Part shown: piece after piece, positions 587 through 12,012 of the stretch
Layout of the letters: each line of letters starts with the position of its first letter
How positions within the stretch are numbered: the stretch's first letter is position 1
Source: a virus
Strand: one strand, 5' to 3'
Length of the DNA stretch: 13,797 bases
Virus genome (UHGV): UHGV-0071160
Program-made: the position numbers and the translations under genes
The notes under the pieces: generated by a model
What the model saw: the letters and a program-made list of their open reading frames with translations, nothing else
Databases searched by the model: none
Told to the model about the DNA's origin: nothing

Positions 587-1279
587 TTAATTGTGTCGCT
601 TAAGGGTCTGTGACTGACTGATTAAGACCTTTCCAAAGACCATAAACCGGTGTTCGTTTTCGCTGGTAATTCCCCATTCGCGGTAAATCTGATTATCAGA
701 AATTACCAGCAGTTTATCAGGTATCATTTGCAGTCGTTTGACGTAAATTTTATCATCAAAACCAAATACATATATACCATCCCCATCAAACTGATTGATA
801 CTGATATCAACGAAGATGAGATCTCCTGGCTCAATGGTTGGACACATACTGTCCCCACGAACGTTGATAACTTTAATGTGATTTGCTGGTCGTCCACCAA
901 ACATCGATACAGCATTATCAGTTCTGTATTCAATGGCATGAATCACATCAATGACATCACCGCCCTGGATAAGGCCATTTCCCGCACTGGCACTGACATC
1001 CAGCATTTCAATACGGAATACATCCTTCACCTGCGTAACATCCTCACTAATACTGTTTTTACATACAGTATTACTTTTGAGGTCTGAGGTAAAGAGATCA
1101 GCAATATCAACACCTAAGCTCCTGGCAATATTACTCAGGGCTTGTTCAGTGAATTGTTTCTGCTTACCTGTTTCGAGGCGCGAGATATTCGCCGCATCCA
1201 CTCCTATTGCTTCAGCGAGATCGGCGATTTTCATGTTCTTCGCCTGGCGAAGTTGTCTGACTCGATTTCCTATGTTCAT
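587..1279 (-). CDS. cI-like prophage repressor (N-terminal XRE-type HTH, C-terminal S24 LexA-like autopeptidase domain)
   Basis: 230-aa ORF; N-terminus resembles an XRE HTH (KIADLAEAIGVDAANISRLETG); C-terminus has GDSM (catalytic Ser) and YVKRL (catalytic Lys) typical of S24 peptidases. Divergent from a Cro-like gene across an operator-rich spacer; no SD before the ATG, so possibly leaderless like lambda cI. Confidence 0.9.
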   Translation of the reverse strand: MNIGNRVRQLRQAKNMKIADLAEAIGVDAANISRLETGKQKQFTEQALSNIARSLGVDIADLFTSDLKSNTVCKNSISEDVTQVKDVFRIEMLDVSASAGNGLIQGGDVIDVIHAIEYRTDNAVSMFGGRPANHIKVINVRGDSMCPTIEPGDLIFVDISINQFDGDGIYVFGFDDKIYVKRLQMIPDKLLVISDNQIYREWGITSENEHRFMVFGKVLISQSQTLKRHN

Positions 1280-1376: not shown

Positions 1377-1637
1377 ATGCAATCACCATTACGGAATGTG
1401 CGTAAGGCGCACGGATTTACTTTGCAGCATGTTGCTGCGGGCGTTCAGGTCAATCCAGCGACGCTGAGTCGTATTGAAAGACTGGAACAAATTCCATCTA
1501 TCGATCTTGCAGAACGTCTGGCCAATTTTTTTAAGGGTGAAATCAGCGAAATGCAGATTCTTTATCCGGCACGTTTTCAATCTAGCCAAAACCAGAATGG
1601 GTTTAAACCACAGGAACAGGAGGTAAGCCGTGGGTAA
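1377..1637 (+). CDS. Cro-like HTH regulator (XRE family)
   Basis: 86-aa ORF with HTH (FTLQHVAAGVQVNPATLSRIE); strong SD GGAGG 5 nt upstream of ATG; first gene of the rightward operon, divergent from the repressor. Confidence 0.8.
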   Translation: MQSPLRNVRKAHGFTLQHVAAGVQVNPATLSRIERLEQIPSIDLAERLANFFKGEISEMQILYPARFQSSQNQNGFKPQEQEVSRG

Positions 1638-2187
1638 GCATCATTGGAAAGTGGAAAAACAACCTGAGTGGTACGTGAAAGCTGTCAGAAAAACTATCGC
1701 GGCATTGCCTGGGGGTTACGCTGAAGCTGCTGACTGGCTGGATGTAACAGAGAACGCTTTATTCAACCGCCTTCGTGCAGATGGCGATCAGATTTTCCCG
1801 CTGGGATGGGCAATGGTTTTACAGCGCGCGGCTGGCACTCACTACATTGCGGATGCTGTCGCACAATCTGCTGGTGGGGTGTTCGTATCGCTTCCTGAAA
1901 TTGAGGAAGTAGAGAACGCCGATATAAACCAGCGCCTGCTGGAAGTCATCGAACAGATCGGGAATTACTCAAGGCAGATTCGTTCGGCAATCGAAGATGG
2001 GGTCGTGGAGCCACACGAGCAGACAGCAATTAATGATGAGTTGTATCTGTCAATTTCGAAGCTCCAGGAGCATGCAGCACTGGTCTACAAAATCTTTTGC
2101 GCTCCAGAAAAGAGTGACGCCCGCGAGTGTGCAGCTCCGGGCGTCGTGGCGTCGATTGCTTCTGGTTGTGGAGAAACTAACGCATGA
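1630..2187 (+). CDS. Early-operon protein at the cII position (uncharacterised; possibly a CII-like regulator)
   Basis: 185-aa ORF; GTG start preceded by AGGAGG (1617-1622); overlaps the Cro-like stop and is ATGA-coupled to the next ORF. Function is assigned by position only. Confidence 0.6.
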   Translation: MGKHHWKVEKQPEWYVKAVRKTIAALPGGYAEAADWLDVTENALFNRLRADGDQIFPLGWAMVLQRAAGTHYIADAVAQSAGGVFVSLPEIEEVENADINQRLLEVIEQIGNYSRQIRSAIEDGVVEPHEQTAINDELYLSISKLQEHAALVYKIFCAPEKSDARECAAPGVVASIASGCGETNA

Positions 2188-3332
2188 ACAGTTTAACGGC
2201 AAATAACCGTTTGTCGCAACAGCTGGTGGTCAGCGTCGCTGAACACCTGTTGTTACGGCATGAATGCAGATTACCAAATCACCTGGCTGTAAGTAACCAC
2301 AGAGAACTTTACCTGACTGTGGGGGGCGAGTTGTGCAGGAACTTAACCGCTGGTTTCGTGACGGAAGAGGACTTTATGTTCATGTTATTCGTTGGGAGCC
2401 AGAAACACAGCGCGTTATCTATCTTCGCAAAGACTACCAGCATGAGTGCTTTAGTCCTTTGTGGAAATTCAGGCGTGATTTTGTTGAGTGTGAAGGACCA
2501 CCAGCACATTGATTCTGCCATTCCGGGACGTTACACTGTTCAGGCACCTTATAAAGCGGGTGTCGGGATTGGCGTCCTGGAATTGCATACGGCGACAATT
2601 GGCGCGTTAGCGTCTTTTTTGTTGCTACAACTCAGCTATACCCAAATTATGGTGGGCTGGGTGGGGGCACCGAAAGGTGCGCCGGTTTCCGTATGCGCCG
2701 GTTACGCCAACCCTGCTCAGTTCACCACCAGCGAAATTGGCGTTTCCGGTGGTGGAAGTTATCCATTGCATACGGAGGCTGCCATCATGGCTACGATCCC
2801 AACCCTCACTCAACCTGAAATTGCCATCGTTGATGGTCAGGCTGTTACTTCATCCCTGGCTGTTGCCAACTTCTTCTCCAAACGTCATGACGATGTACTG
2901 AAAAAGATCCGCACGCTTGAATGTTCCGCATCATTCACTGCCCGCAATTTTTCGGTGAGTGATTACACCGATTGCACAGGCCGCAAACTACCTTGCTATC
3001 AAATAACCCGCGACGGCTTTGCGTTTCTTGCTATGGGTTTCACGGGTAAACGTGCTGCCCAGTTCAAAGAGGCATACATCAATGCCTTTAACCAGATGGA
3101 AAAACTGCTTTCAAAGCCATCCACGCTGAGCGATGCCGCAGATAACGCCAGCGTGCTTTACTCCCACCTGTCGGTAATCCACAAGGTCTGGCTGCAGCAG
3201 CTTTATCCCATGTTGGCAAAAGCCGAATCCCCGCTGGCTGTAAGTCTGTATGACCGCATCAACGACGCGGCGCTACTGGCCAGTCTCATAAATTTGTCGC
3301 TGAACCCTTCAGAGGTAAGGGGGCGCAAATGA
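2184..3332 (+). CDS. Rha-family phage regulatory protein (Rha-like domain in the C-terminal 182 aa); ~200-aa upstream in-frame extension of uncertain status, alternative start at ATG 2787
   Basis: Open frame of 382 codons. Residues from the internal Met at 2787 (MATIPTLTQPEIAIVDGQAVTSSLAVANFFSKRHDDVLKKIRTL...) match the usual N-terminus of Rha proteins, with GGAGG 8 nt upstream. The upstream 200 codons are low in charged residues, but the frame stays open and the 2184 ATG is ATGA-coupled to the preceding gene. Confidence 0.55.
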   Translation: MNSLTANNRLSQQLVVSVAEHLLLRHECRLPNHLAVSNHRELYLTVGGELCRNLTAGFVTEEDFMFMLFVGSQKHSALSIFAKTTSMSALVLCGNSGVILLSVKDHQHIDSAIPGRYTVQAPYKAGVGIGVLELHTATIGALASFLLLQLSYTQIMVGWVGAPKGAPVSVCAGYANPAQFTTSEIGVSGGGSYPLHTEAAIMATIPTLTQPEIAIVDGQAVTSSLAVANFFSKRHDDVLKKIRTLECSASFTARNFSVSDYTDCTGRKLPCYQITRDGFAFLAMGFTGKRAAQFKEAYINAFNQMEKLLSKPSTLSDAADNASVLYSHLSVIHKVWLQQLYPMLAKAESPLAVSLYDRINDAALLASLINLSLNPSEVRGRK

Positions 3333-3553
3333 TCCGGAATATTTTCAAACGGTTTACCAATCATACTTTCCGTTGTCCTCGTCCGGGTCAGTGGTACACC
3401 ACGCCTGCAGGGCATGTTCTACGTGTTAGCCTGGTTGACCGTGAATGTCAGAAGGTGATTTGTGAACCGCTGGGCCGTAATTACCGCGTCAGTATGCCGC
3501 TTATAGCCTTTTGCTCCGGAAAAATGTTTAAGCGTCTGGGAGGTGTGGCGTGA
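3329..3553 (+). CDS. Small hypothetical protein (74 aa, Cys-containing)
   Basis: ATGA overlap with the upstream stop, SD-like AAGGGGG 5 nt upstream; part of the coupled operon. Confidence 0.5.
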   Translation: MIRNIFKRFTNHTFRCPRPGQWYTTPAGHVLRVSLVDRECQKVICEPLGRNYRVSMPLIAFCSGKMFKRLGGVA

Positions 3554-7667: not shown

Positions 7668-8663
7668 GTGACCGTGAGAGCACTACTGACCCCTGAAATC
7701 GCCCCGCGTATGGGGATCGTATTGTTCAGGCCAGGTTCAGAGCTGATGCCCCTGTTTATGCAGGGGCGTGTCCTGCTGGAGCCTGAGCCGGAACGTTATT
7801 CATCTTTTGCCAGTGGTGCCGTTCCGGCATCATCACAACCGCTGGCGGATGATCCTGCCGTTCGGGCCGTGTTCCGCCATGAGGCGGTGATCCGTCGTGC
7901 TGGTGGCGTGGAATGCCTTGAGAGCTGGTTACTTCGTGAAAAGGGCTGTCAGTGGCCTCATTCCGACTGGCACAGCGAGAACATGACCACAATGCGGCAC
8001 GCGCCAGGCGCAATCCGTCTGTGCTGGCACTGTGACAATCTTCTCCGTGACCAGTTCACGGAACGGCTGGAAGCAATGGCAACGGATAACTGTGCCCGCT
8101 GGGTGTTGTCTGTTGTGCGCCGTGATCTTGGTTTTGATGACAGTCACGTTGTGACAATGCCGGAACTGTGCTGGTGGCTGGTTCGTAATGACCTGGCGGA
8201 TGCTTTACCGGAAAGTGCAGCCCGTAAGGCCCTGAGATTACCGAAGCCTGTTTTGCCGTCTGTCACCCGGGAGAGTGACCTTGTACCTTCGGTTACTGCC
8301 ACCAGTATTATCCGGGATAAAGCGAAAAAGGTGCTGGCGCTGAAAGTGGATCCGGAGTCGCCGGAGTCTTTTATGTTACGCCCCAAACGTCGTCGCTGGG
8401 TTAATGAAAAGTACACTCGCTGGGTTAAGACGCAGCCGTGTGCATGTTGTGGAAAGCCAGCTGATGATCCGCATCATCTGATTGGTCACGGCCAGGGTGG
8501 TATGGGGACAAAAGCGCATGATCTCTTTGTGTTGCCTTTGTGCAGAAAACACCATGACGAACTGCATGTGGATACCGTGGCATTTGAAGAGAAGTATGGT
8601 TCCCAACTGGAGCTGATATTTCGTTTTATCGATCGCGCACTGGCGATTGGTGTGCTGTCCTGA
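7668..8663 (+). CDS. DUF968-like (YdfU-like) prophage protein with C-terminal Cys/His HNH-like motif
   Basis: 331-aa ORF; C-terminus CACCGKPADDPHHLIGHGQGGMGTKAHDLFVLPLCRKHHDELH. Lies immediately upstream of Q, as ydfU does next to the Q homolog in E. coli Qin (recalled, not verified). Confidence 0.6.
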   Translation: MTVRALLTPEIAPRMGIVLFRPGSELMPLFMQGRVLLEPEPERYSSFASGAVPASSQPLADDPAVRAVFRHEAVIRRAGGVECLESWLLREKGCQWPHSDWHSENMTTMRHAPGAIRLCWHCDNLLRDQFTERLEAMATDNCARWVLSVVRRDLGFDDSHVVTMPELCWWLVRNDLADALPESAARKALRLPKPVLPSVTRESDLVPSVTATSIIRDKAKKVLALKVDPESPESFMLRPKRRRWVNEKYTRWVKTQPCACCGKPADDPHHLIGHGQGGMGTKAHDLFVLPLCRKHHDELHVDTVAFEEKYGSQLELIFRFIDRALAIGVLS

Positions 8664-8680
8664 TTTTGTGGAGAAAGTTG

Positions 8681-9073
8681 ATGCGTGATATTCAGATGGT
8701 TCTTGAACGCTGGGGGGCATGGGCGGCAAGTGGTAACACCGGGGTGGACTATTCTCCGATAGCTGCTGGATTTAAAGGCCTTTTACCATCCACCGCTAAA
8801 CCTCGCCCGGCCTGCAGCGATGATGACGGCCTTATCATCGAAAACTGCCTTACGCGCCTGAAGAAGAAAAAACCGGACGAGTATTCGCTGCTGGTAGCTC
8901 ATTATCTGCTGCGCATATCAAAAAGGCAGATTGCCAGAACAAGAAAGAAGAGCGAAAAGGCAATACGAATTGAGATGCAGATTGCTGAAGGATTTATTGA
9001 CGGATGTCTGTCGATGCTGGGTGTAAGGCTGGAGATGGACGACTGGCTGCCCAAAAAAGTAAAAAATGATTAG
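8681..9073 (+). CDS. Late-gene antiterminator Q (phage 82/21, QuuD-like type)
   Basis: N-terminus MRDIQMVLERWGAWAASGN...IAAGFKGL matches the recalled QuuD/Q family N-terminus. ATG 8681 has GGAG 8 nt upstream (the track's TTG 8666 is less likely). Followed by terminators and the late-region tRNA cluster. Confidence 0.8.
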   Translation: MRDIQMVLERWGAWAASGNTGVDYSPIAAGFKGLLPSTAKPRPACSDDDGLIIENCLTRLKKKKPDEYSLLVAHYLLRISKRQIARTRKKSEKAIRIEMQIAEGFIDGCLSMLGVRLEMDDWLPKKVKND

Positions 9074-10724: not shown

Positions 10725-10800
10725 AGCCCTTTAGCTCAGTGGTGAGAGCGAGCGACTCATAATCGCCAGGTCGCTGGTTCAAATCCAGCAAGGGCCACCA
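10725..10800 (+). tRNA. tRNA with CAU anticodon (Ile2-type/Met; ileX/ileZ-like)
   Basis: Cloverleaf folded by hand: D-stem GCTC/GAGC, anticodon loop CTCATAA (U33, anticodon CAT), T-loop TTCAAAT, 3' CCA encoded. Near-identical in layout to E. coli tRNA-Ile2 as recalled. Position 1:72 is an A-C mismatch. Confidence 0.85.
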
Positions 10801-10809
10801 TATCACATA

Positions 10810-10886
10810 CCGCCATTAGCTCATCGGGATAGAGCGCCAGCCTTCGGAGCTGGCTGCGCGGGGTTCGAGTCCTCGATGGCGGTCCA
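10810..10886 (+). tRNA. tRNA-Arg (anticodon UCG)
   Basis: Perfect 7-bp acceptor stem CCGCCAT/ATGGCGG, anticodon stem CCAGC/GCTGG, loop CTTCGGA (anticodon TCG), T-loop TTCGAGT, CCA encoded. Confidence 0.85.
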
Positions 10887-10899
10887 TTATCAGCATCAT

Positions 10900-10976
10900 G
10901 CGTTGTTAGCTCAGCCGGACAGAGCAATTGCCTTCTAAGCAACCGGTCACTGGTTCGAATCCAGTACAACGCGCCA
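10900..10976 (+). tRNA. tRNA-Arg (anticodon UCU; argU/argO-like)
   Basis: Acceptor stem GCGTTGT/ACAACGC, anticodon loop CTTCTAA (anticodon TCT), T-loop TTCGAAT, CCA encoded. Confidence 0.85.
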
Positions 10977-11739: not shown

Positions 11740-11980
11740 CAGGGTATCAGTTACCCGTTGAAATTTTTAAATACCTCACAATTCAGGCGGTTGACTGTTG
11801 TCTGGTTTACGGGGAGTTTGTTAAAAGAAACTGGCATGGTGAATCCCCCTGTGCGGAGGGGCATATCAGCGACAGGTGTTTGGTCACACCCCTTATCCTT
11901 TCTGGTGCGGGTTCAGGTGCTGATACTGAACTCACCGGGAGGCACCCGGCACCATGCAATGGCACATAGCGCCACTCTCC

Positions 11981-12010
11981 AGCCCCTCTCCGGAGGGGCT
12001 TTCTTGTTGG
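11981..12010 (+). terminator. Intrinsic terminator (plus strand)
   Basis: Perfect 8-bp stem AGCCCCTC/GAGGGGCT (11981-11988 / 11993-12000), loop TCCG, followed by TTCTTGTTGG. Confidence 0.5.
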
Positions 12011-12012
12011 AT

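Follow-up and report, generated by a model that had tools for sequence, protein, structure and literature searches.

The C4 and CI RNAs of bacteriophages P1 and P4 are processed from longer transcripts. In P4, according to the summary of Forti et al. 1999 in PMC10111431, the CI gene lies inside eta, Kil being the truncated form, and eta is translated only from an upstream promoter, its translation preventing termination. In Gifsy-1, the promoter PisrK drives the terminator-ended small RNA IsrK, noted by the authors to be structurally homologous to P4 seqA; the read-through RNA carries orf45, with its AUG at +107, followed by the antirepressor-like gene anrP, and a processed RNA, STnc1160, lies downstream of IsrK (PMC4825925). 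In the e14 element, ymfM is described as the SOS-inducible division inhibitor SfiC: expression of the cloned open reading frame (ORF) gives filamentation, and the Z-ring block has been shown for the e14 ymfM ORF clone only (bioRxiv 10.1101/2020.11.19.390815). Here we compare these systems with UHGV virus genome UHGV-0071160, a stretch of 13,797 nucleotides (the window), in which a 382-codon ORF that begins at the end of ymfL runs into a Rha-family regulator.

Positions 2184-2800 are very probably the control region of this Rha-type (antirepressor-class) regulator in a lambdoid prophage like e14, ST64B and mEp460, with three superimposed layers. The first is a ymfM-like ORF coupled to ymfL at ATG 2184, with a DUF4222 gene inside it in the -1 frame; the second, an RNA immunity module of the P1 c4, P4 CI and Gifsy-1 IsrK type; and the third, a single frame that runs from ATG 2184 through both layers into Rha, as in P4 eta. 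On this view the locus combines an RNA immunity switch of the c4/CI/IsrK type with an eta-like frame around it, in this case with Rha fused to it and the ymfM/DUF4222 pair in front.

A probable RNA immunity module within the Rha reading frame

Upstream of Rha, positions 2509-2786 contain an IsrK/seqA-like RNA and a C4/CI-type antisense RNA, each matching its Rfam family above the gathering score over the whole model (Table 1); a c4-a1b1 match at 2531-2583 falls below threshold. The C4 and isrK models match every 'Ash' region examined (14 matches each), and neither matches the e14-type loci or the loci with a 78-residue ORF (described below) that were tested. In 21 variants, 92.8% of alignment cells are paired, as against 81.6% in shuffled alignments (0 of 500 reach the observed value), and pairing falls to 40-45% when the partners are slid. 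The 17-bp closing stem of C4 is 100% paired in these variants, with four compensatory pairs, and compensatory changes occur at four of the five pairs of hairpin 1, which appears in the nucleotide alignment as GCACC-GAAA-GGTGC, CCAAC-TTCG-GTTGG, GAGCC-GAAA-GGCTC and GCATC-GCAA-GATGC.

A sequence-only reading of the window had described the ORFs 2184..3332 (382 residues) and 2333..2512 (59 residues), a GGAGG before an in-frame ATG at 2787, and a set of leader-like signals: TTGCTA (2622-2627) and AATTAT (2645-2650) as a -35/-10 pair, the hairpin GCACC-GAAA-GGTGC (2667-2680) and two copies of TGCGCCGGTT (2678-2687 and 2694-2703). All are present in the sequence, the GGAGG at 2774-2778. The hairpin corresponds to C4 hairpin 1, and C4 hairpin 2 owes its stem to pairing between the CCGG cores of the repeat copies; the -35/-10 pair fared less well, as discussed below. 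Hairpin and repeat are recognized as RNA because of the alignment and the Rfam matches and not through single-sequence statistics, since in generic scans alone the signals lie at chance level (one promoter site found against 2.0 expected; a fold z of -1.68 for the hairpin region of the single sequence; the 10-nucleotide repeat one of five in 1.3 kb).

The two RNAs are joined by complementary loops and targets. The b2 loop, UUUCCGUAUGCG, is complementary to GCAUACGG(AGG) both at b1, inside IsrK, and at b', and a2 (ACGCCAA) is complementary to UUGGCGU at both a1 and a'. The b' target includes the GGAGG that sits 8 nucleotides before ATG 2787. Among the variants, b2:b' comprises 11 pairs, seven of them compensatory and 93.9% paired, and the b2/b' duplexes hold 9-10 Watson-Crick pairs when cognate versus 3-6 when non-cognate. 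Loops and targets change together, with at least eight b2 types and three a2 types whose upstream and downstream copies match; the pair in mEp460, TCTTTGGTGA/TCACCAAAGA, is another specificity type. Family membership of both RNAs, covariation and complementarity to a target over the Shine-Dalgarno sequence are directly observed, and the predicted layout of loops and targets is the one that defines the P1/P7 c4 system. Like immI c4 of P1 and P7 (RF01695, RF03163; icd-ant), the window has an RNA of this family with two loops, sites upstream and downstream of it, and a b' that overlaps the ribosome-binding site of an antirepressor-class gene; unlike P1 and P7, it has no icd between C4 and the regulator, the regulator is of Rha type and not P1 Ant, and the RNA lies inside an ORF.

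Rha itself starts at the internal ATG 2787, as the sequence-only reading had proposed. The pRha domain occupies residues 222-307 of the long ORF (PF09669, E 2e-30, 105.9 bits against a cut-off of 29.9), and TIGR02681 matches the Rha part with 101.1 bits against 45.95. All variants have the junction GAGGCTGCCATC-ATG-GCTAC, which stays conserved although the modules to its left diverge and those to its right are of three kinds, and ATG 2787 can be placed at the start junction of P4 kil because EAAI-M-AT is common to both.

The P4 locus resembles the window. Rfam C4 (8420-8507) and isrK (8615-8692) both lie inside the P4 ORF that matches Pfam Phage_ASH, and when this ORF is extended upstream it encodes 197, 198 or 199 residues from three ATGs overlapping the end of ORF88, with EAAI-M-AT followed by a 65-residue tail; the extended ORF agrees with the nesting of eta and kil from Forti et al. 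1999, so far as PMC10111431 describes it. Like P4 eta/kil, the window has a long ORF start-coupled to the upstream gene, which holds an isrK/seqA-type and a C4/CI-type RNA, the internal start junction EAAI-M-AT and a Pfam Ash match. The nested product differs, being the 65-residue Kil in P4, a satellite, and a 181-residue Rha-family regulator in the window, a lambdoid prophage; and the long frame of the window starts at a more upstream point, in a ymfM-like ORF with which DUF4222 overlaps as well. The layout is likewise that of Gifsy-1 isrK-orf45-anrP, which is experimentally supported there (PMC4825925). In Gifsy-1, orf45 ends in a stop and is coupled to anrP; in the window, the frame of ATG 2649, the equivalent of the first orf45 AUG, continues into Rha with no stop codon, and upstream of the putative promoter, too, it is open.

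As to that promoter, TTGATT (2509-2514) and TACACT (2532-2537), separated by 17 nucleotides and with the -10 hexamer ending 6 nucleotides before a start near 2544, form a block that is nearly nucleotide-invariant in the 21 variants and is the IDSAIPGRYTVQAP motif of the supposed Ash domain. This block appears to be a better promoter candidate than the TTGCTA/AATTAT pair.

The supposed domain requires comment, as Pfam Phage_ASH (PF10554) matches residues 117-212 of the long ORF (E 3e-17, 63.3 bits against a cut-off of 26). Among six homologues, the ratio of nonsynonymous (pN) to synonymous (pS) differences is 0.57-0.94 in this part, versus 0.21-0.31 in the Rha part. The conserved Ash blocks are invariant at third codon positions too and coincide with the putative promoter and the RNA stems, and the variable blocks co-vary as RNA pairs. 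AlphaFold2 assigns a predicted local distance difference test score (pLDDT) of 19-31 to residues 1-211, and a confident fold only from about residue 212, from a shallow alignment of 16 close homologues that makes the low score weak evidence. The conservation captured by PF10554 thus does not derive from selection on amino-acid sequence or fold, and the family largely models a translated RNA gene. In P4, Pfam Ash matches what was formerly the 'cI protein' ORF (8168-8584, minus strand) and does not match epsilon (7888-8175, minus strand; PF25738), and a survey of P4-like satellites took PF10554 as the marker of epsilon (PMC8628076).

Two other readings of the N-terminal part were considered and rejected. 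Stand-alone 'Ash-Rha' ORFs begin with an ATG exactly at the equivalent of 2490, and Ash could accordingly be read as a real domain with GTG 2490 as its ancestral start; this was overturned by the near-neutral pN/pS, the compensatory hairpins and the Rfam matches. The hydrophobic residues 51-102, which might suggest a transmembrane N-terminal domain, are not conserved (the e14 type is rich in Ser, Thr and Ala) and have no predicted fold.

Duplicated modules also occur. Tandem isrK-C4-Rha units are found in E. coli MS7163 (locus L004, 3283-5096), and such units are sometimes read as one protein of about 600 residues (P0057, 598 residues; P0072, 592; P0063, 478). Two further loci (L109 and L111) carry two RNA modules side by side with differing loop specificities.

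The ymfM-like frame and its overlapping DUF4222 gene

The 59-residue ORF inside the long frame, which the sequence-only reading had judged the more protein-like, is a real gene whose frame is under strong purifying selection. Its product matches PF13973 (DUF4222) with E 1e-13 and 51 bits against a cut-off of 27, and phrog_1343 over its full length with E 4e-36. In the overlap, the DUF4222 frame has a pN of 0.02-0.28 against a pS of 0.34-0.87 (pN/pS 0.04-0.14, or pS saturated), and frame 0 of the window behaves there like the unused third frame. Wherever DUF4222 follows ymfL, in 18 loci from Citrobacter, Enterobacter, Kluyvera, Kosakonia, Atlantibacter, Phytobacter, Buttiauxella, Shigella and E. 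coli e14, the gene has a start codon of its own (ATG, GTG or TTG) and a Shine-Dalgarno sequence 6-9 nucleotides upstream.

The frame around it, a ymfM-like ORF spanning 2184-2490 and start-coupled to ymfL, has features of a gene as well. It begins with a conserved M(N/T)SLT motif at the ATGA overlap with the ymfL stop, and its 48-60 codons outside the overlap have a pN/pS of 0.22-0.57, whereas the other frames give about 1. Its ATG lies 143, 149, 167 or 179 nucleotides from the DUF4222 start, a spacing that is always 2 modulo 3. Across DUF4222, frame 0 is free of stops in all 22 distinct sequences, whereas the other frame is closed in all 22; random synonymous recoding of the DUF4222 proteins leaves frame 0 open in 1.5-8% of cases. 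Profile comparison with hhalign links the window-type ymfM N-terminus to the Enterobacter/Kluyvera type with 97.5% probability and the Enterobacter type to e14 YmfM with 76.7%; compared directly, the window type and e14 YmfM give 58.9%, over 19 residues only.

Like e14 ymfM, the window ORF stands after ymfL, opens with MNSLT at an ATGA overlap and overlaps DUF4222 out of frame, so that position, start motif and phase are shared, although the N-terminal similarity is weak and is linked only through the Enterobacter-type intermediate. The two differ at their ends: e14 ymfM stops 10 nucleotides before the ATG of the next gene, whereas the window frame reads past 2490 because a GTG replaces the e14-type stop codon. 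The equivalent codon in a Stx1a phage (L007) is GCG, which is no start codon.

Dual coding of ymfM and DUF4222 is conserved in e14 and at least nine genera, and this bears on SfiC. The published work cloned 'ymfM', with no mention of the overlapping ORF (bioRxiv 10.1101/2020.11.19.390815). The e14 ymfM clone holds 53 of the 59 DUF4222 codons together with the Shine-Dalgarno sequence and the TTG start, and library clone D1-8E holds the whole gene; as the SfiC clones carry all or 53 of the 59 codons, the division inhibitor could be either product. Annotation of K-12 e14 (L112; L017:2822-3180) is split along the same line: the Prokaryotic Genome Annotation Pipeline (PGAP) records the DUF4222 gene (WP_001250269.1) and omits ymfM, and EcoCyc-style annotation records ymfM only, with DUF4222 absent.

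Natural rearrangements of this region were also observed. A lineage with a G7 run (L113:2501-2830 and L114:1954-2283), which also carries a CAG to CGG change and is present in at least 24 assembled contigs, encodes a 109-residue in-frame fusion of the ymfM N-terminus to DUF4222. Prophages of another group (L115-L118; for example L116:2501-2737) have a 78-residue ORF in which the ymfM-like N-terminus continues in frame into the 28 C-terminal residues of Rha, with DUF4222, RNA module and Rha domain all absent; the product of this ORF is 62-79% identical to the window protein over the common parts. In these prophages an ATGA-coupled 74-residue gene follows the 78-residue ORF, and L115 has an autotransporter gene in its place.

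Why the long frame may stay open

From the known systems we infer promoter use, processing, direction of regulation and anti-termination by translation as follows. A promoter near 2509-2537 would produce a short IsrK-like RNA with a1 and b1, ending at the intrinsic terminator, and read-through RNA would be processed, as in the homologous systems, to the C4 RNA (2645-2732). By analogy with P1 c4 and P4 CI, a2 and b2 of C4 would pair with a' and b' and bury the GGAGG of ATG 2787, so that Rha would be kept off in the lysogen. The long frame may, by the same kind of analogy, be translated only after induction and only from RNAs that begin at the upstream early promoter; the passing ribosomes would then melt the terminator and the C4 fold, making Rha expression insensitive to the RNA immunity. 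Under such a model the frame would be open without conservation of its amino acids.

The window frame agrees with this expectation. In the RNA module, frame 0 is stop-free in all 41 distinct variants, whereas the +1 frame is stop-free in about 14 of 41 (2508-2648) and 16 of 41 (2649-2786), and the +2 frame in 0 and about 10 of 41, respectively; segment lengths are fixed at 141 nucleotides plus 138 or 141. The data suggest that a single frame, leading from ATG 2184 at the ymfL stop into Rha, is preserved in a translatable state with no constraint on its amino acids, as the eta model predicts, and the 78-residue in-frame deletion derivative, which has itself diversified, points the same way. By analogy, the window frame probably behaves as a translated conduit, like P4 eta, and not as a conserved protein domain. 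The joint proposition, that the frame is selected only to stay open, as a 'ribosome conduit' that would carry translation from the induced early operon through the RNA switch and let the regulator escape it, and that SfiC could be ymfM or DUF4222, is advanced tentatively, as a possibility short of probable.

Several points weigh against this interpretation. Because the 41 variants have conserved blocks in common, they may amount to 8-10 independent samples, and the stop-free frame could be partly inherited. In phage 2851 and in APSE-7, the same pair of RNAs forms a plain leader with an in-frame stop 30 nucleotides before the regulated gene, and a frame that reads through is therefore no requirement of the family. 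The candidate promoter TTGATT-17-TACACT matches the consensus at 8 of 12 positions and was not called by the promoter scan. As to the mode of C4 action, the sequence would fit translation repression as in P1, termination as in P4 and countering by short IsrK as in Gifsy-1 alike, and the details of Forti et al. 1999 used here come from a secondary summary.

The long ORF could instead be a genuine 382-residue multidomain protein, in which a folded N-terminal Ash domain and its upstream part are fused to Rha. Not only the Phage_ASH score but also the coverage of the region by phrog_821 and phrog_995, the hundreds of database entries and the always-open frame would accord with such a protein, and the fusion raised by the sequence-only reading holds insofar as an ORF of 382-386 residues is conserved and stop-free beyond chance. 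The proposed novel or membrane N-terminal domain is not supported: the pN/pS of 0.57-0.94, the motifs that are invariant as nucleotides, the RNA co-variation, the pLDDT below 50 for residues 1-211 (from the shallow alignment) and the position of the P4 Ash match, on an ORF over the CI RNA gene, make a multidomain protein highly improbable. An untranslated leader is somewhat easier to entertain, though still unlikely. On this account frame 0 upstream of ATG 2787 would go untranslated, DUF4222 excepted, and the long ORF would be an accident of annotation; PGAP's calls for the start of the Rha gene, which are shortened and vary among genomes (equivalents of 2382, 2442 or 2475), come near to it, residues 51-201 are without amino-acid constraint, and 2851 and APSE-7 have their in-frame stop. 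It leaves unaccounted for the purifying selection on the ymfM-like N-terminus, its ATGA-coupled start and conserved phase to DUF4222, the frame open in 22 of 22 sequences and 41 of 41 variants, the diversified derivative that joins the N-terminus to the Rha tail, and the precedent of P4 eta. The sequence-only option in which a small gene is followed by a leader that regulates Rha was nonetheless essentially right, the small gene being DUF4222 and the leader a c4/IsrK module whose target covers GGAGG.

Two further alternatives concern single signals. A promoter at TTGCTA/AATTAT driving the C4 RNA or Rha directly is highly improbable in spite of its 17-nucleotide spacing and conserved -10-like hexamer, as the pair matches the consensus at 8 of 12 positions, falls below the scan threshold and has its -35 in the most variable spacer, and as C4 and CI are cut from longer transcripts in P1 and P4; AATTAT owes its conservation to the 5' end of C4 and to the orf45-type ATG. 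Least credible, and hardly to be entertained, is a programmed -1 frameshift or slippage at G6 (G GGG GGC, 2320-2327) joining the ymfM N-terminus to DUF4222. The heptamer does fit X XXY YYZ, the DUF4222 frame is open from 2297, and the G7 lineage encodes the fusion; against this, a TGA stands in the DUF4222 frame directly before its start in ST64B, 118970_sal3, C. braakii and the Stx1a phage, which excludes frameshifting as a conserved mechanism, DUF4222 has its own Shine-Dalgarno sequence and start everywhere, other genera are without the G run, and G6 is invariant in length in 80 loci. A frameshifted ancestral gene, also offered by the sequence-only reading, found no support.

Genomic context and implications

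The context, set by the cI-like repressor (Table 1), is that of a lambdoid prophage of the e14/ST64B/mEp460/SfV type, of which the window covers the immunity and early region. Beyond Rha follow a 74-residue gene, a replication gene, PerC, Dam, a LexA-like gene, RusA and KilA-N. Similar DNA occurs in 281 phage records at E ≤ 1e-5, including Stx phages, SfV, phiP27, phiV10 and APSE, and 87 of these cover at least 80% of the stretch compared. The 382-386-residue ORF is conserved in E. coli, Salmonella and Citrobacter, with hundreds of database entries of that length, and is contiguous in 79 of 80 viral loci. Charged residues make up 11% of residues 1-201 and 20% of residues 202-382, in agreement with the earlier remark that the first 200 codons are poor in charge. 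The full ORF and the DUF4222 profile gave no matches to solved structures. Many database copies of the ORF are labelled 'peptidase', and Pfam and NCBIfam scans of the ORF returned no peptidase family.

Table 1. Coordinates in the window of the control region and neighbouring genes
Feature	Position	Strand	Basis
cI-like repressor, helix-turn-helix and Peptidase_S24, self-cleaving type	587..1279	-	Pfam
cro-like helix-turn-helix gene, first of rightward early operon	1377..1637	+	Pfam HTH_3; synteny with mEp460 and ST64B
ymfL, CII-like, Phage_CP76; TGA stop overlaps ATG 2184 as ATGA	1630..2187	+	Pfam; NCBIfam NF041471, E 2.5e-50
Eta-like long frame, 382 codons: ymfM-like, RNA-module ('Ash') and Rha parts	2184..3332	+	ORF list
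ymfM-like N-terminal module (MNSLT...), section without DUF4222 overlap	2184..2332	+	Frame-0 pN/pS
G6 run, Shine-Dalgarno sequence for GTG 2333	2321..2326	+	
DUF4222 gene, 59 residues, -1 frame inside long ORF, GTG start	2333..2512	+	PF13973; phrog_1343; PGAP WP_001341559.1
GTG at the codon of the e14-type ymfM stop and of the ATG in stand-alone 'Ash-Rha' ORFs	2490..2492	+	
Putative internal constitutive promoter, counterpart of PisrK and P4 PLE	2509..2537	+	
IsrK/seqA-like RNA	2544..2620	+	Rfam RF01394, 58.9 bits (gathering 50), model positions 1-77 of 77
IsrK parts: a1; b1; intrinsic terminator, then U6	2569-2575; 2585-2592; 2601-2614	+	Terminator scan
C4/CI-type antisense RNA	2645..2732	+	Rfam RF01695, 80.7 bits (gathering 45), model positions 1-87 of 87
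C4 parts: hairpin 1; hairpin 2 stem; b2 loop; a2	2667-2680; 2681-2685 with 2698-2702; 2686-2697; 2704-2710	+	
ATG equivalent to first AUG of Gifsy-1 orf45 (about +107 from IsrK start), in frame with Rha	2649..2651	+	Sequence; PMC4825925
a' target TTGGCGT, complementary to a2	2737..2743	+	7/7 Watson-Crick, co-varying in three a2 types
b' target GCATACGGAGG, complementary to b2 loop; contains Shine-Dalgarno GGAGG	2768..2778	+	
Rha-family regulator proper, short nested form, 181 residues	2787..3332	+	PF09669; TIGR02681
DUF4222-like paralogue, 74 residues, joined to Rha stop through ATGA overlap	3329..3553	+	phrog_1153

The RNA-Rha cassette is bracketed by two DUF4222-like small genes (2333-2512 and 3329-3553) that are 21% identical, and phrog_1153 is matched weakly by the 59-residue and strongly by the 74-residue gene; in a P4/phage-inducible chromosomal island-like element (L119), a DUF4222 gene lies downstream of an isrK-C4-icd unit. 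A perfect 12-nucleotide direct repeat, CTGGCTGTAAGT, occurs at 2283-2294 and 3234-3245, at a spacing of 951 nucleotides (317 codons), and in frame 0 each copy reads LAVS; in-frame deletions might arise at this repeat, yet it is not the junction of the 78-residue variants. A 17-nucleotide inverted repeat (2182-2198 and 2529-2545, 88% complementary) connects the ATG 2184 region with the -10/IsrK 5' region. Elsewhere, the window carries a full-length STnc100 small RNA (RF02076, 134 bits; 11805-12011, plus strand) and a cluster of three tRNAs (10725-10976, plus strand): Met (CAT), Arg (TCG) and Arg (TCT).

The control module of the window is ordinary for phages though widely mis-annotated. Thousands of E. 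coli and Salmonella prophage genes of 280-386 residues are recorded as 'Rha family', 'ash family', 'antirepressor' or 'peptidase', and part of each is an IsrK/C4 switch, with the true regulator beginning only at the internal ATG; PF10554, for its part, is in use as a marker of P4 epsilon despite not matching epsilon. The at least eight loop/target types provide a catalogue of hetero-immunity classes for antirepressor control in Stx, SfV, ST64B and mEp460-type phages. Three known ideas come together in one frame: an immunity RNA that is read through by ribosomes as in P4 eta, a ribosome-binding site masked as by c4, and the overprinted ymfM/DUF4222 pair. The last of these raises the question of which product, that of ymfM or that of DUF4222, is SfiC.

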